NCBI GenBank assembly: GCA_951406725.2
Contig: OX597839.1
Coordinates: 19,096,001 to 19,160,000, forward strand
Direction of reading: 5' to 3'
Length of the DNA: 64,000 nt
Origin: Octopus vulgaris
Taxonomy: Eukaryota
Positions within the stretch are counted from its first letter, which is position 1. Each line of letters starts with the position of its first letter. A program made the translations under genes and the position numbers. Below the pieces are notes generated by a model, which ran no database searches, had not been told where the DNA came from, and was given only the letters and a program-made list of their open reading frames with translations. Shown in pieces: positions 2,713 to 61,448 of this stretch.

Positions 2713-3443
2713 TACATATATATATATACACGCGTGCGTTAATGAACATATATTTCAGTATATATTCATGTATGTATATATGCGTGTTTGTGTGTGTGTG
2801 TTCCAAAATATCTGACAAGTGAAAAGGAAAACCAATATACGGCCTTATCACAGTCTACGTTATTTATCTGGTGTAACATATAGCGTTGTTGTTGGCACAG
2901 TATTGGCAGTGGTTGCGGCGGTGGTATATAGCTGAAAGTCATGGCTGCGGTGGTAGCGGTGCCGGTGATGGTAGCGACAAACATAAACCAAAAAATGTAA
3001 AAAAAAAGGTCAAAAACCCCTCCAAAGCACACAAAAAACAACCAACAAAAGGCAAGTTATTCTGTATAAGGACGTCTAAATCTGTTTCTGTATAAACAAA
3101 CACATTCCTTTATGAGAATAAGCTGATTAAATATCAAGGCAATACGTGATTAAGAATCTCATTCTTAACCACTGTATGTGTGTAGGGACACTCACTCACT
3201 CACTCGCTCATTCTCTCTTCTTCTATGCCTCTTGCTCTCCCTCTTTCTGTATCTCATATACACATCATAGCAACACGTAAATACACATTCACGCATATTT
3301 ATATATAATCGCCAGAAGCTAAGTTTTTAGTAGTTGCCGTGGAATTGAATCAGCGACCCAGGTCGCAGTATTGTGACAAATACGTTGACACCTCTAAATA
3401 TACATGGAAAAAAATGGTGCAATAATTTTAGGTACGTTTATAA

Positions 3444-3933
3444 GGCGACGAGCTGGCAGAAACGTTAGCACGCCGGGCGAAATGCGTAGCAGTATTTCGT
3501 TACGTTCTGAGTTCAAATTCCGCCGAGGTCGACTTTGCCTTCATCCTTTCGGGGTCGATAAATTATGTACCAGTTACGCACCGGGGTCGCTGTAATCGAC
3601 TTTATTAGTTTGTCTGTCCTTGTTTGTCCCCTCTGTGTTTAGCCCCTTGTGGGTAGTGAAGAAATACGTATTTCGTCTGCTGTTACGTTCTGAGTTCAAA
3701 ATTCCGCCGAGATCGACTTTGCCTTTCATCCTTTCGGAGTCGATTAAATAAGTACCAGTTACGCACTGGGGTCGATATAATCGACTTAATCCGTTTGTCT
3801 GTCCTTGTTTGCACTCTCTGTGTTTAGCCCCTTGTGTGTAGTAAAGAAATAGGTATTTCGCCGAGGTCGACTTTACTTTTTATCCTTTTGGGGTCGATAA
3901 AATAAGTACCTGTTGAGCACTGTGGTCGATGTA
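3444..3933 (+). mobile_element. tRNA-derived SINE family A, head-to-tail multimer (~2.5 units)
   Basis: Head GGCGACGAGCTGGCAGAAACGTTAG (A-box-like), GAGTTCAAATTCC (B-box-like), core GCCTTTCATCCTTTCGGGGTCGATAAATTA; body restarts at 3667 and 3852. Confidence 0.85.
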
Positions 3934-4372
3934 TACACACTGTCATATATATACACAGACAGACAAATACACACACATAAATATACAGAGACAAATGTTA
4001 GTTGAACATACAGCTTTATATGTGTTTATAGAATTATGTAGGATTATTCATCTATACAAACCCATGCACAGAAGCATTTACAGTCACACACAAACATACA
4101 CGTGAATATTTATATATATAAACACACCTACACACACATATCGAGTAGAATATCCTCGCCAGAAGGTTGGTTGCCTCTGCTCCATCATATTAAGCGTTGT
4201 TTATCCTGTAAAAATCTGTACAAACAGATCACTAAATATTTACGAAAATCCGCTTCAAAGTCCTTCAGACTCAGTTGATGCAGCTGCAGGTATCTTCACC
4301 CTCTTTATTGTTTTAGTGCGGTTTTTATTATCGAATTACGGCTTGCAAATTGCGTTCTTCACATGTATGCGA

Positions 4373-4403
<31 letters not shown>

Positions 4404-4578
4404 TGTATGTATGTATGTATGCGTGTGTATGTATGGATGCGTGTGTACGTATGTATGGATGCGTGTATACGCATGTATGTATGTATGGATGGATGGATGG
4501 ATGGATGCGTGTGTATGTATGCATGTGTATGTATGTATGGATGGATGGATGGATGCATGTATTTTTGCATGTTGCATG

Positions 4579-4632
<54 letters not shown>

Positions 4633-4909
4633 ATAGAGGGCATTATTACACATAAATGCCAAACGCTAGGAGGGACTTACAAAGTCATTACTACCAAAAA
4701 TAAACGAATCGTACCGAATGCAGCTCTCGAAGCGAGACATTTAGAAACAGAATTTAGTTGCAGATCACCTGTGATTTCGCAATTAACGTATTATCTACGT
4801 CTTTTGTTTATTTTTTTCTCTCATGAGGTTTTTCCCGCTAACTACCTGATAATTTCTAGTTAAGATTTCTTATTAAGATTTTATCCTTAATTGTTATATA
4901 TATATATAT

Positions 4910-5545
4910 TGTGAAAATAATAAGGGTAGAAAATTTAGAAAAATTAACATAATTGTGGCTAGCATGGAAATAAAGTTAATAGACAACATATTTTCATATA
5001 TAATTATGTGCAAACAATTTACGTATTTATCCACGAAAGAGGTTACCTTTAACAGGACACCTCACATGCTACAAAGGGCAGTAAAAATTCAAACCACGAA
5101 TTAAAGTAATTGCAAAGAGAATGAAAATAAAAAATATTTTTGTAGTTAACCCCAGACTCGAGTTTCCGTACCTCTTCAGTGACGGCGCTAAAATTAATGC
5201 ATATTTATGCAGCAAATAGTAACGAATATACACGTGCTACATACTTATACATTATAATATTCAAATCTACCGCGCAAGTGCAGTTACATTCGGTAGCAAA
5301 TAATAATAAAATCAATTAAAACTGCGAACCAGAAAGGCTTTGAAACTACAAAAATTTTACTGTGAAAATAATAAGGGTAGAAAATTTAGAAAAATTTTCA
5401 TACCGGTGGCTAGCATGCACGTATTTTTTATTTTCATTTCCTTTGAAATTGTCCTTACCCGTGGTTTGGGCTTTAACTGCCCTTTCTAGCATGTAAGATG
5501 TCCTGTTAAAGGTCACCTCTTTCATGTATAAATACGTAAATTGAT
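4910..5545. mobile_element. (TA)n-adjacent fold-back element with hammerhead-like motif (putative PLE pseudo-LTR remnant)
   Basis: Direct repeat at 4910 and 5361 (TGTGAAAATAATAAGGGTAGAAAATTTAGAAAAATT); ~120-bp imperfect inverted repeat ~5015-5137 / ~5421-5543. Confidence 0.6.
5152..5182 (-). ncRNA. Type I hammerhead ribozyme-like motif (stem II decayed)
   Basis: Minus strand UCA-CUGAAGA-GGUACG-GAAA-C-UCGA-GUC-UGG: canonical core, palindromic stem III, GUC site. Confidence 0.55.
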
Positions 5546-5552
5546 TGGACAC

Positions 5553-5621
<69 letters not shown>

Positions 5622-5733
5622 AGACTTTGGTCAAACCGAGACTGCAGTTGAAGACTCTTACCGAAGGTGTCACGCAGTGGGACTGAAACCGGAACCATGT
5701 GGTTGGGAAGCAAGATTCTTACCACACGACTAC

Positions 5734-5782
<49 letters not shown>

Positions 5783-6000
5783 CATATATGTGTGTGTGTA
5801 TATATATGTATGTATGTATGTATGTGTGTGTGTGTGTATGTATGCACTATATTTTTATTTCAGTGGTACGACTAATGAACAGGTCACGTGTCTTAACAGC
5901 TTTTAGGGATGAAAGTACTCTACACCGCTAATTATCTTCTACTACAATAGAATTTTTTTCTGTTTGAATGTATGTATGCACATATATATATATGTGTATA

Positions 6001-6068
<68 letters not shown>

Positions 6069-8636: not shown

Positions 8637-9080
8637 ATATATATATATATATAAATGTAACCTCGCTGTTAAAGACATACAAATATACATAAACCCACGC
8701 CAACAGAAAGAATGAAATAAACATCGTCAGTTGATTTATTTCACAAAAGCTGTCTTCCTTGACTTTTACCAAACTGTAAACAATGGAAGATGTCTTGCCT
8801 TCATGAAAGAAAAACAACAGAGAAAACAGATTGGAAATGGACAGAATTAGCATTGGAAATTGTATTAGAAGAGGAAGTAGAAAAGAAGGAAAGGAAGACG
8901 GCAGCAGCAGCAGAAGATGTGAAAGAAAATGAGGTGAAAGTGAAAGTAGAAGTAGAAGGTCGCGATCAAATTTGGCGTATGAAAACACATCCAATGGGTC
9001 AAACTATGCAATCCCAGTCCCGTGGGGTTTCTGGTGGGGTTACCAAGGCAGTATGTAACAGATTATTTAAGAAAATTTAA

Positions 9081-9312
9081 GGCGGTGATCTGGCAGAACC
9101 GTTAGCACGCTGGGCCAAATGCGTAGCCGTATTTTGTCTGCCGTTACGTTCTGAGTTCAAATTCTGCCGAGGACGACTTTGCCTTTCATCCTTTCGGAGT
9201 CGATAAATTAAGTACCAGTTACGCACTGGGGTCGATGTAATCGACTTAATTCGTTTGTCCGTCCTTGTTTGCCCCCTCTATGTTTAGCCCCTATGGGTAG
9301 TAAAGAAATAAG
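9081..9312 (+). mobile_element. SINE family A, full-length monomer (tail type 1)
   Basis: Same head and core as 3444; ends AGCCCCTATGGGTAGTAAAGAAATA. Confidence 0.85.
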
Positions 9313-9480: not shown

Positions 9481-9716
9481 GTAATAAGCATGTTTTCAAA
9501 TTTTGGCACAAAGACAGCAGGTTGTGGGAGGTTGTAAGTCTGCTATATCGATCCCACTGTTCAACTGGAACTTATTTTATCGACCCCGAAAAGTGAAAGG
9601 CAATGTCGACCGCATAATAATAATAATAATAATAACAATAATAATAATAATAATAATAATAATAGTAATAATAATAATAATAATAATAATATTAATAATA
9701 ATAATAATAATAATAA

Positions 9717-10926: not shown

Positions 10927-11113
10927 ATACACACACACACACATATATATCGCACAGAAAATCAGTTCATATCTTTGAATGCTCGAAAAAATTTATGTAT
11001 ACGCATATGCATAGGTGTATGCGTATGCCTGTATATATATGTGTGTGTGTGTGTGTACGTACATACACACATGCATAAATATATATATATATATATATAT
11101 ATAGCGTACGATT

Positions 11114-11486
11114 GGCTGTGTGGTAAGTAGCTTGCTTACCAACCACATGGTTCCGGGTTCAGTCCCACTGCGTGGCACCTTGGGCAAGTGTCTTCTACTA
11201 TAGCCTTGGGCCGACCAAAGCCTTGTGAGTGGATTTGGTAGACGGAAACTGAAAGAAGCCCGTCGTATATATGTATATATATGTGTGTGTGTGTATATGT
11301 TTGTGCCTCTGTGTTTGTCCCCCCAACATCGTTTGACAACCGATGCTGGTGTGTTTAGGTCCCCGTAAATTAGGGGTTCGGCAAAAGAGACTGATAGAAT
11401 AAGTACTAGACTTCCAAAGAATAAGTCCTGGGGTCGATTTGCTCGACTAAAGGCGGTGCTCCAGCATGGCCACAGTCAAATGACTG
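11114..11486 (+). mobile_element. tRNA-derived SINE family B with CORE-like motif and internal microsatellite
   Basis: GGCTGTGTGGTAAG...GGGTTCAGTCCC head; ACCTTGGGCAAGT resembles the CORE-SINE motif; internal (TA)/(TG); tail GGCGGTGCTCCAGCATGGCC.CAGTCAAATGACTG. About 20 whole or partial copies in the window. Confidence 0.85.
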
Positions 11487-11777
11487 TACATGTAAATTTT
11501 TACGCATAAATAGATACCAGTATACACGTATATAAATTTATATGAATCATATATGTACATATGTATATACGCATATGTGTGTGTGTGTGTGTGTGTATTT
11601 ATACAGATGTGTATACGGAAACATGGCACAATGTATATAGCTACACACAGGCATTCATGTATTTTAGTATACACACTTGCACATAAGTAAGGAAACGTGT
11701 GTATGACGTATGTCTATCATATGTATACAATATAAGCGCACACCTATTACGTGTACAGAAATATGTATATATATATA

Positions 11778-14719: not shown

Positions 14720-15310
14720 AAGGCGCAGGTGTGGCTATGTAGTAAAAGCTTGCTTCCCTACCACATAGTTCCAGGATCAGTCCCACTGCGTGACACCTTG
14801 AGCAAGTGTCTTCTGCTTTGGCCGACCAAAGCCTTGTGAGTGGATTTAGTAGACAGAAACTGAAAGAAGGCGGTGAGCTGGCAGAAACGTTAGCACACAG
14901 GGCGAAATGCTTAGCGGTATTTCGTCTGCCCTTACGTTCTGAGTTCAAATTCTGCTGAGGTCGACGTTGCCTTTCATCCTTTCGAGGGTCGATAAATTAA
15001 GTACCAGTTACGCACTGGGGTCGATATAATCGATTTAATCCCTTTGCCTGTCCTTGTTTATCCCCTTTATGTTTAGCCCCTTGTGGGCAATAAAGAAATA
15101 AGAATATGAAAGAATCCCGTCGAACACACACCATCGCTTGACAACTGATGTTGGTGTGTTTAAGTCCCCGTAACTTAGCGGTTCAGCATAAGTGACCGAT
15201 AGAATCAGTATTAGGTGTACAAACAATAAGTTCTGGGGTCGATTTGTTAGACTAAAGGCGATGCTCCAGCATGGCTGCAGTCAAATGATTGTATCAAGTA
15301 AAAGAATAAA
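14720..15310 (+). mobile_element. SINE B interrupted by a full SINE A (14869-15106)
   Basis: SINE B resumes after the insert; TGAAAGAA on both sides (14861-14868, 15107-15114) is a likely TSD. Confidence 0.85.
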
Positions 15311-15616
15311 AGCATATATAAGTATATGAATATGGTGGTTGTTGTTTACTCCTTATGCGAAGTTTGACCATCTCCTGTACCTACATCTTAGAACCATCAT
15401 GGCATCTGATGTGGCTTTTTAAACCAGACAATGTTCTGAAAAGACACCTACATAGATTTCAAATCCGATTTGGACCACCAAGAGCTGCAGATTAGTTTTG
15501 ATCTTTGAGGACCTTAAAATGAATTTTTGGGGGGCCTCCCGTTAAATGGGGAAACCTTCTGGCATACATTGCATTCAAAGATGTGCACAGACGTAGAGGC
15601 AGAATATATATAAGAC

Positions 15617-16213
15617 AGAGAGCTGGCAGAATCGTTAGCACGACGGGCGAAATGCTTTGTGGTATTTCGTCTGCCGTTACGCTCTGAGTTCAAATTCCGC
15701 CGAGGTCGACTTTGCCTTTCATCCTTTCGGGGTCGATGAATTAAGTAACAGTTGCACACTGGGGTCGATATAATCGACAATCCCTTTGTCTGTCCTTGTA
15801 TGTCCCCTCTATGCTTAGCCCCTTGTGGGTAATAAAGAAATAGGTATTTCGTCTGCAGTTACGTTCTGAGTTCAAATTTCCGCCGAGGTCGAATTTACCT
15901 TTCATCCTTTCGGGGTCGATTAAATAAGTACCAGTTACACACTGGGTTCGATATAATCGACTTAATCCGTTTGTCTGTCCTTGTTTGTCCTCTCTGTGTT
16001 TAGCCCCTTGTGAGTAGTAAAGAAATAGGTATTTCATCTGCCGCTACGTTCTGAGTTCAAATTCCAGCGAGGTCGACTTTGTCTTTCATCCTTTCGCGGT
16101 CGATAAATTAAGAACCGGTTACACGCTGGGGTCGATGTAATCGACAATCCCTTTGTCTGTGTTTGTATGTCCCCTCTATCTTTGGCTCCTTGTGGGCAAT
16201 AAAGAAATAAGAA
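15617..16213 (+). mobile_element. SINE family A trimer (one head plus three ~183-bp bodies)
   Basis: GGTATTTC restarts at 15661, 15843 and 16028. Confidence 0.88.
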
Positions 16214-19858: not shown

Positions 19859-20345
19859 TGGCAGTGAGCTGGCAGAATCATTACCATGGCAGGCAAAATG
19901 CTTAGCTTCATTTCATCTGTCTTTACGTTCTGAGTTCAAATTCTGCCAAGGTCGACTTTGCCTTTCATCCTTTCGCGGACGATAAATTAAGTACCAATTA
20001 TGCACTGGGGTCGCTGTAATCGACTGGGCCCCCTTCCCCAAAATTTTAACTTTCTGCCTGTTATAAAAAGAATAATAATAATAATAATAATATTTATTAT
20101 TATTATTATTATTATTACATAAATAATGCTGTAAGCTAGCAGAATGATTAGCATGCCGGACAAAATGCTTAGCTGCATTTAATCTGTGTTTATGGTCTGA
20201 GTTCAAATACCGCTGAGGTCGACTTTGCCTTTTCATCCTCTCTGTGTGGAGAAAGTATGTAGCAGTGGACTACTGGATCAGTAAAACCATGTTGTCCCTT
20301 TCCCTAAAAAAATTTGGGACCCAGTGCCAACACTAGAAATATCTA
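19859..20345 (+). mobile_element. Two SINE A-type copies with alternative tail (type 2)
   Basis: Same head and core, but after GTAATCGAC continue CCCCTTCCCCAAAATTT...; copies at 19859-20075 and ~20127-20345; also ~48630-48845. Confidence 0.7.
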
Positions 20346-22390: not shown

Positions 22391-22428
22391 CATAAGTATA
22401 TATATATATGTATACACATATATATATA

Positions 22429-22940
22429 CTAGCAGTATCGCCTGGCGTTGCTCGGGTTTGTAAGGGAAATAACTATATAAGCATTTTTAGAGAGTTACTT
22501 CCCTTATAGATGCCAATTCGGGCTTTCTTAGCCATTTCTGTTTTGGTGTCTTCAAGCCATGAAGTCATTGTTCTAAAAGAACGCTGGTCTCCTTGACAAC
22601 GCTTTACGACGTTGATTTCCTTACACTCCTTCCCCACAGCTTCACGAGGGAGGGAAGAAGGGGGAGAAGCAAACAGGTGCAGTTGTGACCATGGACGCCA
22701 ACTCCGCCGCCATCGACACACGAAAAAATATGCATTAAAATGGAATAAAAAATTATGTTAAATTATTTTAAAAATCGTAGACTCATCGTAGACGCGCGCT
22801 AATACTCAGACGGGCTCGATATGAATCACGACTATAAAATACCCGAATTTGGTTAAACTGCACTGCAAAATATGAGAGTAGTTAGGAATCTAAATCGAAG
22901 GGGACAGACACTCACACAACTACAGTTTTATATATATAGA
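22429..22940 (-). mobile_element. Non-autonomous Helitron
   Basis: Minus strand 5' TC, 3' CTAG, GC-rich subterminal hairpin, A|T insertion site; near-identical to 57837-58348. Confidence 0.8.
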
Positions 22941-23191
22941 TATATATGTATGTATATCTTAGGAAAATCAGAGAAGGTAGAAAATGGTAAAGTCATTTAT
23001 TCATGAAGAACATTTTTGTACCGGTTTCAATTATTGCGACTAAAATATGAAGAACAAATGAAGGAAAAATTAAATGAAATATTAAAAAAATCATTTCCAT
23101 ACTTTTCCGAATTTAAGGGACATTTTCCTTTTTTTCTGCCTGTCTCTCTCTTTTAACTCCTGTGGGTTCTACGTAGTTAGATGAAGCTAGT

Positions 23192-26355: not shown

Positions 26356-26403
<48 letters not shown>

Positions 26404-26409
26404 CTTTTC

Positions 26410-26615
26410 TTTTATCTTTTAATTGTTTCAGTCATTTGACTGCGACCATGCTCGAGCACCGCCTTTAGTCGAGCAACTCGACCCCAGGACTTATTCTTTT
26501 GTAAGCCCAGTACTTATTTTATCGGTCTCTTTTGCCGAACCGCTAATTTACGGGTACATAAACACACCAGCATCGGTTGTCAAGCAATGCTAGGGGGACA
26601 AACACAGACACACAA

Positions 26616-26654
<39 letters not shown>

Positions 26655-26815
26655 CATATATACGACAGGCTTCTTTCAGTTTCCGTCTACCAAATCCACT
26701 CACAAGGCTTTGGTCGGCCCGAGGCTGTAGTAGAAGACACTTGCCCAAGGTGCCACGCAGTGGGACTGAACCCGGAACCATGTGGTTGGTAAACAAGCTA
26801 CTTACCACACAGCCA
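26410..26815 (-). mobile_element. SINE family B (a second, deleted copy follows at ~26855-27200)
   Basis: Reverse complement of family B tail, internal microsatellite and head. Confidence 0.85.
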
Positions 26816-27029
26816 CCTCTGATATATACAAATATATATATATATATAGTATTTTATTTGTTTCTGTCATTTGACTGCGGCCTTCCTGGAGTACCGCCTT
26901 TATTCGAACAAGTCAACCCCATGACTTATTCTTTGTAAGCCTAGTACTTATTCTATCGGTCTCTTTTTCCAAACCGCTAAGACGTAGACACACCAACAAA
27001 CACAGGCACACATACACACACACACCCAC

Positions 27030-27892: not shown

Positions 27893-27923
27893 CGTGTGTG
27901 TGTGTGTGTATATATATAGAAAA

Positions 27924-28157
27924 GGCGGCGAGCTGGCAGAAACGTTAGCACGCCGGGAGAAATGCGTAGCCGTATTTCGTCTCCCGTTACGTTCTGAGTT
28001 CAAATTCCGCCGAGGTCGACTTTGCCTATCATCCTTTCGGGTCGATAAATTAAGTACCAGTTACGCACTGGGGTCGATCTAATCGACTTAATCCCTTTGT
28101 CTGTCCTTGTTTGTCCCCTCTGTGTTTAGTCCCTTGTGGGAAATAAGAAATAAGAAT
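27924..28157 (+). mobile_element. SINE family A, full-length monomer
   Basis: Complete head, core and tail type 1. Confidence 0.88.
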
Positions 28158-28700: not shown

Positions 28701-28729
<29 letters not shown>

Positions 28730-28731
<2 letters not shown>

Positions 28732-28842
28732 TTCTGTGATACACGATCCCTTTTGATCGAAAACCAACCTCCCTTTTTTCTCCCCCAAAATAAAAGCTCT
28801 ACCTTGTAATTTGTTCAGTCCTGTGTGGCTAATAAAGAAACA
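28730..28842 (+). mobile_element. Short 3'-end copy of the Tx1-like LINE within (TATC)n
   Basis: Matches 30608-30807 with internal deletions; ends GGCTAATAAAGAAACA|TATC; (TATC)n on both sides. Confidence 0.85.
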
Positions 28843-28894
<52 letters not shown>

Positions 28895-30443
28895 AATGGA
28901 CATCTATCGAGACCTTTCGACATTGCACGTTCGGTCCGTCAGGGATGCCCCCTCTCGGCGCTTCTATACGTATTGACTCTTGAGCCACTACTGCGGAAGC
29001 TGGCGACTCTGAGGGGCATCCCGCGAGAATTGGGATGTGGGACGAGCGTGTCTGCATACGCGGACGACGTCACCGTCATAGTGTCAAGCCACGAGCACAT
29101 CGAGCGGGTCGGCGAGACACTGAAAGACTACGAAGCGGTGACAGGAGCAAAAATCAACCGGGAAAAGTTAGTGGGCTTGCGGCTCGGCACCTGGAGAAGC
29201 AAGCCCATGCCGTCCACCAGTACCTCCGTCGTAGGACGCTGGACAGACGGCCCGATTGAGTTGCTCGGGGTCTGGTTCGGTCCGGACCTCCAAATGGAGA
29301 AGAACTGGAACGAGATAACGAGTAGGGTGGTCACTCTCGCCCAGCAATGGGCCGAGAGGAAACTGTCCCTAAAAGGTCGGACGGAGGTGGCGAACGCGTA
29401 CATCGCGTCCATCATCTACTACCGCCTGACCGTCGTACCTTGTCCCGACCCTACCATCACCAAACTACAACGCATCTTCTTCCGCTTCTTGTGGAAAGGA
29501 TGCGTCCCGATGGTCAGGCGATCCATTTGCTGTCAACACCCGTTAAAAGGAGGGCTGGGCATGCCGTGGTTGATGATGCGCAGACACGCGCTGAGACTGC
29601 GACATCTCCGGCTCTATGTAGACGACGGTGAACAGGTGTGGTCGCCGTTTGTGAGGCACGCATTCCCGCAACTTGTCTCCATGACCGAACTGCAGTCGTG
29701 GATCAAAAAGAGGCCGAGGAAGGGCGAATGGCACCGCGAGTGTCGCGTTGCTCTCAAGCAACTCTGCCGTCCCGGGTCGACCTTGAGTGACTTCAACACA
29801 ACCAAAGCATTCTATAGGGGATTAGTGGAGGGGAGGTACGACGACGATCTCGGGGCAAACCTGGGCGTCGACGAGGAATACCTGACCCGCCTGTTTCAAA
29901 CGACTTTCGGGCCCGGGACCTATGGACAACTTCCAGAGATCCCTGGCCTGGCGGTGCTACCGAGAAGCGCTACCCGTTCGGGATAAGCTCTATAGGCATG
30001 GCTCGAGAAACACGGGGCCGACCTGCCCGAGATGCGGGCAGAGCGACGAAACCGCTCTGCACGCAATCGTGCAGTGTCCAGCAATTTCCCACCTGTGGGC
30101 TTATGTCGAACGACTGCTGTCACGTGTGGGACGTGTCGGTTTATCAGCCGAGTCTATCGTTAATATCGTCACGCCTCCTTCCTTCAAACGGGAAGGAAGA
30201 GCTATTTTTATCATACTTGTGGCTATGGCGAAAGAATGTATCTGGTGGACACGCCTGAAAGGATTAGAGACAAGCACTTTCCTCTCTGGTCAATCTCTCA
30301 TCAACTTCTTCAAGTATCACTTGAGGAGGAAAGTGAGAGTAGAGAGGCAAGTTTTGTCTAGTGAATGTTTTAAAAAAATGATGGGTGAATGTAGCAAGGA
30401 TGGCACGTATGAATGACGAAGCCACCTTGACTATGATTCTATG
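28895..30443 (+). pseudogene. ORF2 (RT plus zinc knuckle) of Tx1-like element, truncated and frameshifted
   Basis: ORFs 28811-29986 and 29922-30416 join via a frameshift near 29920; a probable second frameshift near 30378 restores WVNVARMARMNDEATLTMIL*. The listed ORF N-terminus is microsatellite. Confidence 0.85.
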
Positions 30444-30807
30444 AACCATAAAAATTAATACAGAGAGTTGCTTATTTGCAAAAAAAAAAATAAAAGAAAG
30501 AAATATAACATGTGACTTCATTGACCGAGGTTACCGTGGTCTTTTCCGTAGGCTTTTCTTTCCACGGGTAAACCTCACCTGTCCTCCCCTTTACACTTCA
30601 TATTGACATTTCTGTGATAACGATCCCTATTGATCAATTTTTTCCTCTCCCCCTTTTCTTTTAACCCCCCCTTTTGTTGTCCTCTTTCTCTCCTTTTACG
30701 ATCCCTTTTGATCGAACACCCCCCCCCTTTTTTTACCTTCAAAAGAAAAGCTCTACCTTGTAATTTGTTCTATCTGTGTGCAGCCCTGTGTGGCTAATAA
30801 AGAAACA
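28895..30807 (+). mobile_element. 5'-truncated Tx1/L1-clade non-LTR retrotransposon
   Basis: RT motifs VRQGCPLS and YADD, LSLKGR and GGLG motifs, C-terminal CPRC-x8-H-x4-C knuckle; pyrimidine-rich 3' UTR with AATAAA; flanked by (TATC)n. Confidence 0.92.
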
Positions 30808-30842
<35 letters not shown>

Positions 30843-38966: not shown

Positions 38967-39256
<290 letters not shown>

Positions 39257-39262
39257 TGCACT

Positions 39263-39633
39263 GTAGCTTGCTTACCAACCACATGGTTCTGAGTTCAGTC
39301 CCAATGTATGGCACCTTAGGCAAGTGTCTTCTACTATAGCCTCGGGCCGACCAAAGCCTTGTGAGTGGATTTGGTAGACGGAAACTGAAAGAAGCCCGTC
39401 GTATATATTTATATATATATGTGTGTGTCTGTGTTTATGTGTTTGTGTTTGTCCCCCCAACATCGCTTGACAACCGATGCTGGTGTGATTACGTCCCCGT
39501 AACTTAGCGGTTCGGCAAAAGAGAGCGATAGAATAAGTACTAGGCTTACAAAGAATAAGTCCTGGGGTGGATGTGCTCGACTAAAGGCGGTGCTCCAGCA
39601 TGGCCGCAGTCAAATGACTGAAACAAGTAAAAA
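39263..39633 (+). mobile_element. SINE family B, near full length
   Basis: Close match to the other family B copies. Confidence 0.88.
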
Positions 39634-39649
39634 AGCATATATATACACA

Positions 39650-39728
<79 letters not shown>

Positions 39729-43700: not shown

Positions 43701-44237
43701 TACACACTGAATCACAGTAATTCCTTCTGATTACATTAAGTGTCCATGTGTCTATGTAACAGTTGGTCACTTAGAACTCATTCTGATTTTAGCACAAGGC
43801 CAGCAATTTTGAATGAAGGGGCAAGTCGATGACATCGACCCCTATATTTAACTGGTATTTATTTTATCGAATCCGAAAGATGTCACTTCACTTCACAATA
43901 TGAAATATTACTTGTTCACTTGTAGTGCTCCCATGGGATTGAACCTGGAATCACGTGGTTAGGAGGAACAGTTATCACACAGCCACGCTTGTATATAAAT
44001 ATATTTTTACCTGTTTTGATCATTAATCTGTGGCCATGCTGCAGCACTGGTTCGAAGGATTCAGTAAAATAATTTAATCTCAGTACTTATTTTTGTTGCC
44101 AAATGGTGGTGGGGACAAACAAACAAATACACACACACACATACATATATACATATACGAAGGGCTTCTATCAGTTTCCGTCTGCCGCATCATCACACAA
44201 GGCTTTGGTCAGCCTGAAGTATAATAGAAGACTCTTG

Positions 44238-48058: not shown

Positions 48059-48111
<53 letters not shown>

Positions 48112-48138
48112 CTGTATATATATTATATACATATATAC

Positions 48139-48184
<46 letters not shown>

Positions 48185-48199
48185 GTATATATATCTGAG

Positions 48200-48341
48200 T
48201 GTAAGTAGCTTGCTTACGAACGAAACGGATCCGGGTTCAGTCCCACTGCGTGGCACCTTGGGCGTCTTCTACTATAGCCACGGGCCGACCAAAGCCTTGT
48301 GAGTGGATTTGGTAAGCGGAAACTGAAATTAGCCCATCGTG

Positions 48342-48376
<35 letters not shown>

Positions 48377-48582
48377 ATATGTTTGCCCCCCCCCCCTCAA
48401 CATCGCTTGACAACCTATAGCAGTGTGTTTACGTCGCAGTAACTTAGCGATTCGGCAAAAAGAGTCTGATAGAATAAGTACTAGGCTTACAAAGAATAAT
48501 TCCGTGGGATCGATTTGCTCGCCTAAAGGCGGTGCTCCAGCATGGCCGCAGCCAAATGACTGAAAAAAATAAAAGAGTAAAG
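48200..48582 (+). mobile_element. SINE family B
   Basis: Head remnant, core and tail present. Confidence 0.8.
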
Positions 48583-49351
48583 AGAGAGAGAGTATCGTTG
48601 TAGGTTTGTTGTTTACTTTAATAAATCCAAGGCAGAGTTGGCAGAACCGTTAGCTCGCCAAGGAAATGATTACCGGCATTTTGTCTTTCATCATGCTCTG
48701 AGGTTCAGCTTCTGATGAGGTCCAATTTGCCTTTCATCATTTCAGGGTCGATAAAATAAGAACAGATCGAGAACTAGGGCTGATGTAGTTAATTTAAAAC
48801 CCATCACAAATTTGCTGACCCTACGCCAAAATTTGAAGCAAATAAATACGAAATCCTGTGTCTTCGGAAAGATTAGAATTCTAATATGCAGTTCAAGATA
48901 TTTATTGGAAAGAATAGTATCCACTTCTCTGCTGATGTTTCACTCGCAGTTTCTGGAAAATTCGTTGTATTCTTCCGCTTAAGTCAAACGTCGGAATTGG
49001 TGAGTTGAAATTTCAAGTACCAAAAGTATCTCGAGAAAGCGATAAGTCCTCTTGAAACTTTACTCAAATCTTATAATTATTTCTCTTGTGTTACTATTAC
49101 TGCTTTGCTATGCTATAATTTATGCAAAGACACCGAATTAAACGCATTCATTAACATGCATACACACAAAGTTATATATCATACGTATATATATACAGTA
49201 CATAATATATGTATTATACGCCTGTAGATGTAGTACATATAGACAATTATACAAATTCACATAGCTATGATATCTTATCTGTCTATCTATCTATCTATCT
49301 ATCTATTTATATATGCATCTATCAATCTACCCATCTATCTGTATATATATA

Positions 49352-57804: not shown

Positions 57805-57836
<32 letters not shown>

Positions 57837-57837
<1 letters not shown>

Positions 57838-58348
57838 CTATATATATAAAACTGTAGTTGTGTGAGTGTCTGTCCCCTTCGATTTAGATTCCTAACTACT
57901 CCCACATTTTGCGGTGCAGTTTAACGAAATTCGGGTATCTTATAGTCGTGATTCATATCGAGCCCTTCTGGGTATTAGCGCGTGTCCACGATGAGTCTAC
58001 GATTTTAAAAATAATTTAACATCATTTTTTATTCCATTTTAATGCATAATTTTTCGTGTGTCGATGGCGGCGGAGTTGGCGTCCATGCTCACAGCTGCAC
58101 CTGTTTGCTTCTCCCCCTTCATCCCTCCCTCGTGAAGCTGTGGGGAAGGGAGTGTAAGGAAATCAACGTCGTAAAGCGTTGTCAAGGAGACCAGCGTTCT
58201 TTTAGAACAACGACTTCATGGCTTGAAGACACAAAAACAGAAATGGGTAAGAAAGCCCAAATTGGCATCTATAGGGAAGTAACTCTCTAAAAATGCTTAT
58301 ATAGTTATTTCCCTTACAAACCCGAGCAACGCCGGGCGATATTGCTAG
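57837..58348 (+). mobile_element. Non-autonomous Helitron
   Basis: A|TCTATATATATAAAACTG...CCCGAGCAACGCCGGGCGATATTGCTAG|T; matches 22429-22940. Confidence 0.85.
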
Positions 58349-59332
58349 TATATAATAAAAAGATATAGCTCGTTCTCGAGTCATATAAACTTACAGGGAC
58401 GTTTCCCAATTTTTGTGCCGCATATATTTTCCCCCTGGACGGGACGCCAGCCCGTCGCAGGGAGGCTCATTCCTGCCAGCTGAGTGAACATGAGTAACAT
58501 GAAAAGAAGTATTTTAGTGAAGAACACACACAACGCATCGCCCGGCCCAGGAATCGAAACCACAATCTTACAATCATGAGCCTCACACCCTACCTGCTGA
58601 GCCACGCTTCCCCAACCATATGTACATATACACACACACTTACGCTACGAGCATTCTGTTGTACAAACTTGTGCAGAGCACAGCCGTTCGCCGGATTTGT
58701 TCCGCGGCAACGTGTTTTAATGTCATTTTTGCTATTTAAATCAGCTTCTATTATGTTCTACATTAAATGGCAAGTATGACACGAGTGTGATGTAATGTGT
58801 TCCAACGTGCACTGCCTGCTTCTTTCCCTTTGCGGAGAGGGGAAACCAGCATGGCTTCTCTAGCGAAAACGTAAACACACATAAAATGAGACTCACACAT
58901 ACATAAGAGGCACATACATGAGTATATATATAAAACATACATACATACATGTACACAGCCATAGACACACACACGTGTATGTGTTTGCATGTTTGTTTAT
59001 TTGCAAATATACGTGTTTGTTTATTTTTTCACCGAAATACTGTCAAATCGATTTAATACGATATGAGCAGGGTAGAGAGCATATACACACAGACACACAC
59101 ACACATATATATATACATACATACATACATACATACATACATACTTACGTAGGTATATTTGTATGTATGCATGTACATATGTGTGTTCTCCCTACCTTCT
59201 CATATTGTATATACATATATGCTTATATATATATATATATGCCTGTATACATAAATATACGCGTGTATATTTACGTATGGCTATCTATCTATCTATTTTC
59301 TCCTCTCTCTCTCCTATTTTTCCTCTATATAT

Positions 59333-60756: not shown

Positions 60757-60950
60757 TATTTCTTTATTACCCACAAGGGGCTAAATATAGAGGGGACAAA
60801 CAAGGACAGACATAGGTATTAAGTCGATTACATCGACCCCAGTGCGGAACTGGTACTTAATTTATCGACCCCGAAAGGATGAAAGGCAAAGTCAACCTCG
60901 GCGGAATTTGAACTCACAACATAACGACAGACGAAATACCGCAAAGCATT
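60757..60950 (-). mobile_element. SINE family A (tail type 1), 5'-truncated
   Basis: Reverse complement of core and tail. Confidence 0.8.
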
Positions 60951-61448
60951 TCCGTCGATGTCAACTCTGAAACCTTTGGATATCAGCCCCTCATTTCCCT
61001 TGTGCTATTTACCTGCGTACCTTTATCATACCGAGTTCTATTCCCACTTGAGTTTAACCTCGTGTGTTATCTTCGCGAGGTAAAATGCGCTGCCGTCAAA
61101 TTCAATTAATTCTTTCACTTTCTCAAATTACCTGACCTTCTACCTAATTAGAAATCTTCATTTTTGTTTGTTGTTTGTATAATTTACCCAAAGAACTGTT
61201 CTCATTCAGAAGGTCAATCATTATGGAATTCCAACTGTGGCCATCTCTAATTATTTCCAATGTTTCCAGACAAAATTATCTCATGTAGCCTCCATTTTTA
61301 AAACGAAGGTAGGCTCAGGCGTGGCTGTGTACTAAGAAGTTTGCTTCCCAACCATATGGTTCTGGGTTCAGTCCTACTGCGTGGCACCTTGGGCAAGTGA
61401 CATCTACTATAATCTCAAGCCGATAAATTAAGTACCCGCCGAGCACTA

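Follow-up and report, generated by a model that had tools for sequence, protein, structure and literature searches.

A poly(A)-free 3' tail with a predicted hairpin common to an abundant octopus SINE and to L1-group, likely Tx1, LINEs

LINEs of the L1 clade are the textbook 'relaxed' type, which grab poly(A). The sharing of a 3' tail by a SINE and its partner LINE is a known principle and, as far as the available parts of the sources go, L1-clade pairs make up three of 58, found only in plants or algae (Ohshima; PMC3472496, PMC3747384). The stringent L1-clade pairs described there are LINE1-1_ZM with ZmSINE2/3 in maize and sorghum and L1-1_CR with SINEX-3_CR in Chlamydomonas (PMC3472496, PMC3747384). 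The crocodilian SINEU was paired with Tx1-Mar because the two agree in target preference, in age and in their 5' heads (Kojima; PMC4494074); SINEU has poly(A), and the available part of that paper reports no significant Repbase match for the 3' half of SINEU-1 (PMC4494074). For octopus, a 2026 repeat annotation gives 13 recently active L1-Tx1 families and tRNA-Deu SINEs, with no pairing in the part available (PMC13282606), and tRNA-Deu is a main SINE class (PMC8967140). No SINE/LINE pair of the kind considered here appears in the available portions of PMC4758252, PMC4824008, PMC5804259, PMC9115989 and PMC8967140, and a search of the literature, with Repbase, Dfam and supplements outside its scope, found neither an animal case of tail sharing with a Tx1 element nor the pairing described below.

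The LINE and SINE A in the window

The window analysed is a stretch of 64 000 nt from Octopus vulgaris (contig OX597839.1, positions 19 096 001 to 19 160 000), and its features are listed in Table 1. Aligned with positions 4152–6061 of a full-length copy, the truncated LINE shows 1879 identities and 29 mismatches, i.e. 98.5 % identity to a two-ORF element of 6061 nt, and RVT_1 and zf-RVT domains were detected in its part of ORF2. As a (TATC)n array is found at the 5' junction too, the LINE was inserted into the repeat and the array is not a repeat tail; TATC also lies 5' of full-length copies of the family. The short second copy is stacked in the same array, with TATC again at 28701–28728. A sequence similar to the inverted repeat of the 3' UTR is found in an ATT-targeting family, and none was found in SINE A by local alignment.

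The complete ORF2 contains Exo_endo_phos (APE), RVT_1 and zf-RVT domains, and among solved structures it is closest to human L1 ORF2p (E 9e-56), with R2 reaching only E 2e-20. From its predicted protein, the family is assigned to the L1 group of non-LTR retrotransposons. It likely belongs to the Tx1 clade, a label adopted because of its targeting, its zinc-knuckle ORF1 and the annotation of one homologue as YTX2 (35 %). A CCHC zinc knuckle in ORF1 is a feature of the Tx1 clade, and CX2CX4HX4C is visible in ORF1 of the LINE, with weak Pfam support (E 0.098). Target-sequence preference, a further Tx1 trait, is present as TATC at both ends and as ATT in sister families. The named LINE homologues belong to Argonauta and Octopus and, in an RT tree built without reference Tx1 or L1 rows, the link of the octopod clade to the YTX2 homologue is an open fork.

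SINE A is 233 nt long. Its head has A/B-box-like motifs, judged by eye against the box consensus, and is followed by a central domain and a tail of 65 nt; an Rfam search found no tRNA in the head. Exact matches to its last 24 nt number 104 137 genome-wide, a few of which are presumably LINE ends, and unselected copies (64 matches in 864 kb) have a mean identity of 92.3 % to the consensus. TSDs of 7–19 nt were found in 52 of 80 full-length copies by an automatic search, some possibly spurious in simple repeats, and mostly start with bases matching the SINE's own end. SINE A has neither poly(A) nor a simple-repeat tail, and a relaxed poly(A) mechanism was rejected, as its ends pass directly into TSDs. 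The sister SINE in the window shares this body but not the tail, and the point where the two diverge puts the tail junction near SINE position 168.

SINEs that combine the head or central domain of SINE A with different tails are found in the window at 19860–20025, 9535–9611, 43823–43879 and 48635–48763, pointing to tail exchange among SINEs. The window also holds a second abundant dispersed repeat of approximately 480 nt, unrelated to SINE A (11032–11569, 26358–26848, 39157–39695 and 48098–48583), and a pair of 530-nt repeats in opposite orientation that are 95 % identical (22423–22953 and 57824–58354).

Table 1. Features of the window (positions numbered from its first nucleotide)
Feature	Positions	Strand	Evidence
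LINE 3' tail, homologous to the SINE A tail	30756..30807	+	38–40/49 positions, shuffle tests
Predicted terminal hairpin, AGCC/GGCT stem, 6-nt loop, AATAAA directly after	30782..30801	+	Folding; covariation across families
Young TATC-targeting L1-group (likely Tx1) LINE, 5'-truncated copy; ORF2 3' half in three frame pieces, 3' UTR after	28895..30807	+	Comparison with full-length copy
(TATC)n target array, LINE 3' junction	30808..30839	+	
(TATC)n array, LINE 5' junction	28843..28894	+	
Very short second 5'-truncated copy, same LINE lineage, 11-nt deletion in tail	28730..28842	+	
Inverted repeat in LINE 3' UTR	30528..30575	+	Sequence; pairing judged by eye
SINE A copy nearest LINE	27922..28152	+	
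SINE A, full-length, GGGC hairpin variant, genome query	14867..15100	+	
SINE A, full-length copy	9079..9310	+	
SINE A, then two head-less 184-nt units starting at GGTATTT site	15612..16209	+	
SINE A, then head-less unit at same GGTATTT site, partial third unit	3442..3933	+	
SINE A copy lacking first ~37 nt	60757..60952	-	
Sister SINE: head and central domain of SINE A, unrelated tail	19860..20025	+	

The original prediction, that the SINE A tail resembles the 3' end of this LINE, held. The 52 nt quoted are what the window reads, and the reported match of 40 of 49 positions was reproduced by hand count with the same SINE string, a consensus of 30 copies giving 38/49 and single copies 36–40 of 49 (mean 37.9). 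The best blastn match (E 3e-4) covers the very 3' terminus of the LINE and of the SINE, which do terminate together. When the last 80 nt of each were compared under two scorings, no dinucleotide shuffle out of 10 000 reached the score in either case. If the final 12 nt of the SINE were kept fixed, 6 and 0 of 10 000 did so, and if those 12 nt were removed, 277 and 43 of 10 000, so that the upstream part alone is only modestly significant. A comparison of the whole SINE with the whole 6061-nt LINE, made on either strand, gave a score that 1 and 0 of 300 shuffles reached. On this sequence comparison, the two tails are homologous.

The terminal hairpin and the carriers of the tail

In 13 ends anchored on AATAAA, a predicted stem of 4 bp, closed by a loop of 5 or 6 nt, lies directly upstream of the signal, and 48 of 52 cells are paired. 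None of 20 000 column shuffles reached this count; it was taken over related rows chosen by hand, and three of 17 ends (L322, L209 and the LINE end at L380) were excluded from the pair counts. Compensatory changes are seen at pair 2 (G-C to C-G in the SINE) and at pair 3 (C-G to G-C in subfamilies of an ORF1-only element described below). An ungapped count over 14 rows gave 85.7 % paired, with covariation at 1/500 and slid registers at no more than 46 %, and the counts of pairs changed on both sides were not significant (63 and 43 of 500). With -3 to -7 kcal/mol the hairpin is small and its stem weak, and three families have A-C as the outer pair. AGTAAA replaces AATAAA in 81 of 147 SINE tails, hence the signal need not act as a poly(A) signal in the SINE.

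The tail is common to TATC- and ATT-targeting LINEs, to old LINEs at non-repeat sites and to an ORF1-only half-LINE, and none of these families has poly(A). Scored against the SINE tail, the ORF1-only element reaches 83 (50/55, with 50 identities, four mismatches and one gap), an old TATC subfamily 59 (37/42, ungapped), the window family 35, an old ATT family 32 and a young ATT family 31, which places the LINE family of the window among the weaker matches. With the last 12 nt fixed, the score of each family was reached by at most 11 of 4000 shuffles, and that of the ORF1-only element by none. The young ATT-targeting family has an ORF2 approximately 70 % alike in amino acids to that of the window LINE. 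It forms head-to-tail arrays of full-length copies with a period of ~5.87 kb (G000:C4:93.80–93.83 Mb, C47 and C50; loci L105–L127), in which short (ATT)n lies between the copies and many contain an open ORF2 of 1145 aa.

The ORF1-only element was found via a profile search of random DNA (locus L321). Its ORF1 is 29–35 % alike to the LINE ORF1s and the tail follows directly, no match to ORF2 being found between the two in L378 and in three of three further loci. Its copies have variable, 5'-truncated ends, a clear TSD was found in seven of 14, and all of these start at GAG. We interpret it, from its sequence, as a HAL1-like non-autonomous LINE that was retroposed. The match between this element and SINE A begins at the module junction of the SINE. 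At L321:3150–5150 its 3' part is tandemly repeated, with another abundant repeat inserted. The copies at L368, L369, L376, L377/L378 and L382 share one flanking repeat, which by eye is one arm of a long-inverted-repeat element, and this shared flank suggests that the ORF1-only element targets a transposon.

Three pieces form a train at L380:1–2412: first an ORF2-bearing LINE, represented by its end, then an ORF1-only element whose frame is open over 471 aa, and lastly a short second tail. Relatives of this LINE numbered 206 candidates with 70–87 % identity, of which 40 were scored and the ends of 15 fetched. All 15 ends lie in non-microsatellite flanks and have SINE-tail scores of 19–60; that at L395 contains the last 24 nt of the SINE exactly, with the exact SINE hairpin, and those at L386, L393, L396 and L397 have a stem similar to that of the SINE and a different loop. 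The tails at L390–L397 are putatively linked to the ORF2-end matches behind which they lie. The 5' part of the SINE tail thus fits the half-LINE best, and the SINE hairpin fits the old LINEs at non-repeat sites best. Few families have the SINE-type stem, and those that do are old, while SINE copies average 92 % identity to the consensus, so a shared period of activity can only be presumed; the identities of the LINE families (91–99 %) come from best matches and are biased upward, that of the SINE from unselected copies. No intact autonomous element with a full SINE-like tail was found, and the closest full-length match cannot encode RT. At L180:9807–9838 and L181:3622–3653, the same hairpin is followed by (ATC)n, possibly marking a further microsatellite-targeting family.

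A better match to a non-Tx1 LINE would have spoken against the predicted pairing. When 864 kb of unselected sequence was searched with the tail profile at E<1e-3, the matches apart from regular SINE copies were four TATC-lineage ends, two ORF1-only ends and five SINE fragments, cut or truncated; no element from outside the L1/Tx1 group was among them. The profile found no tail in seven loci that contain distant RT matches and whose 3' ends possibly lie outside the loci. Protein searches with a piece of the window ORF2 returned only the young TATC family, and those with two outside homologues only the young ATT family. A pattern that combined a motif of the LINE 3' UTR with the SINE hairpin gave 11 434 matches and was swamped by SINE copies. 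A stricter version gave 58, and the two examined fully (L260 and L273) are LINEs with a SINE piece beside them. A pattern for an intermediate tail gave one match, a TATC-lineage copy with a 5-nt loop.

Proposed mobilisation of SINE A

The earlier statement that SINE copies are not in TATC was borne out: among 80 full-length copies, TATC lies upstream of one and downstream of none. Among the 104 137 exact tails, TATC repeats follow the SINE end in 164 cases, and in 104 in the reverse orientation. SINE ends abutting TATC thus amount to at most 0.16 % against a background of 0.18 %, and the target preference of the window's LINE family is not shared by SINE A. The excess in the orientation of the LINE is significant (p=0.0003) and corresponds to ~60 copies. 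Given this lack of enrichment, the window's family is at most a minor carrier of SINE A. At L260, a 5'-truncated SINE A tail lies inside a TATC array behind a LINE of the TATC family, in the same orientation.

About a third of SINE tails run into one site inside another SINE copy. This was found for 21 of 62 unselected tails at position 50, the GGTATTT site, and such joining is seen more often with the GGGT variant, the end of which agrees with the site (42/92 versus 7/55, p=3e-5, over all fetched loci, which are partly selected; 9/20 versus 2/14, p=0.08, among unselected tails). Units of the window array at 15612..16209 are only 84–90 % alike, which fits separate events, and six units at L247 are 98–100 % alike, which fits local duplication. 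A second self-site lies near position 20; four SINE tails of the GGGC variant join SINE sequence there, and the site agrees with the last bases of these tails. No autonomous LINE was found at the GGTATTT site: 38 of 39 pattern matches have SINE-type upstream sequence, a second pattern gave no match, no Tx1 tail was seen by eye in 15 non-SINE sequences 5' of the site in the fetched loci, and the site follows none of 15 fetched LINE ends.

We consider it probable that the SINE A tail derives from the ORF1-only lineage or its autonomous relatives and that SINE A is copied in trans by the ORF2p of a sister Tx1-group family via the hairpin. A template switch onto half-LINE RNA, or onto RNA of the autonomous relatives of this element, would have provided the SINE with its tail. 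The sister-family ORF2p would bind the predicted hairpin of the tail (stringent recognition), and the last 2–5 bases of the RNA would pair with the nicked target and prime copying by target-primed reverse transcription. Such end pairing would bias the landing site of each subfamily, including the site in the SINE's own head. The best candidate partners would be the old families at non-repeat sites whose ends have the SINE-type GCCC/GGGY stem.

The original prediction had named this or a sister Tx1 element as the mobiliser, and rather a sister. The preference for a sister stands, as several relatives match the SINE tail better than the window's family does, whereas that family itself is nearly excluded by the scarcity of SINE ends at TATC. 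Since these ends are no more frequent than background, the driver of SINE A is likely a sister family and not the TATC-targeting family at these coordinates. What the prediction did not foresee is that the closest match is a non-autonomous, ORF1-only element and that the handle is common to the whole radiation.

It is unlikely, though the best-surviving alternative, that the tail was captured long ago from the Tx1 group and survives as a relic, not needed for an expansion driven by RTE, CR1 or Dong. Elements of the RTE, CR1 and Dong-R4 groups are abundant and recently active in octopus, according to the available part of the annotation (PMC13282606), most SINE copies lie at dispersed sites, and no young autonomous element with the full SINE tail was found. 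However, the stem is kept in both SINE variants, as G-C or G-U, and its register differs from that of the half-LINE by paired changes; the lack of poly(A) or a simple-repeat tail also argues against this account, as do SINE junctions, with a TSD and a short end match, resembling those of the ORF1-only element.

Less probable still is mobilisation by the TATC lineage itself, either the window family or the older subfamily, with specificity lost in trans. This lineage is very abundant and has many long open ORF2 frames (at least 1100 aa in many copies of the window's family). Its old subfamily, besides the ungapped tail match, is 93.6 % identical to its own consensus (best matches only), an age similar to that of SINE A, and the orientation bias of the SINE ends at TATC is in its favour. 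Against this, TATC follows 28 of the 30 best genomic copies of the young family and 22 of 30 of the old one, compared with the background-level frequency for SINE ends, and the SINE loop is the 5-nt loop of other families, not the 6-nt loop of the TATC lineage. In addition, the endonuclease is reported, in the part of the source available, as the main determinant of target choice (PMC4494074). Chance or convergence, whereby a pyrimidine-rich run and a poly(A) signal would look alike in any retroelement end, could be entertained from the window pair without its last 12 nt (p=0.004–0.03) but is very improbable, being largely refuted by the identity to the ORF1-only element, the grading of tail similarity across families and the start of the match at the SINE's module junction.

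The preferred reading, trans-copying by a sister-family ORF2p, can be extended more tentatively, to a scheme that we hold to be possible rather than probable. One poly(A)-free hairpin handle would be read by a radiation of animal Tx1-type enzymes with different targets, and the SINE, having taken the handle from the half-LINE lineage, would ride several partners and steer its landing by its last bases, including into its own head.

Comparison with described systems

A structured, poly(A)-free handle in an animal L1/Tx1-group lineage is relevant to whether the clade had stringent recognition ancestrally, and the sister family would likely have powered a SINE whose copies in the octopus genome exceed 100 000. 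As there are young families with long open ORF2 frames, the question is testable in cells.

As far as the portions of the sources available go, this system resembles the maize and Chlamydomonas pairs in its shared 3' end of ~45–50 nt, its predicted hairpin with compensatory changes and its L1-clade partner. Those pairs are from plants and an alga, the algal one reported as poly(A)-ended, whereas the host here is an animal and poly(A) is absent; a further difference is that the tail here belongs to a half-LINE and to a radiation of families that differ in their targets. The crocodilian SINEU/Tx1-Mar system (PMC4494074) is similar in that movement of a SINE by Tx1 is inferred, insertion is in tandem and several Tx1 families are implicated. 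In contrast to that system, the evidence for SINE A is the tail, and its target is not shared with the LINE of the window. Kibi, Koshi and the crocodilian (TTCC)n and (TTTC)n Tx1 families (PMC4494074) are likewise APE-RT LINEs found specifically in simple repeats, but the targets here, compared by description only, are (TATC)n and (ATT)n. Finally, HAL1, HeT-A and Ag-Sponge (PMC5786205, PMC5753468) also have an ORF1 followed directly by the 3' end, without RT. They come from the L1, Jockey and CR1 clades and not from Tx1, and in the system described here it is the ORF1-only element that stands closest to the SINE tail.
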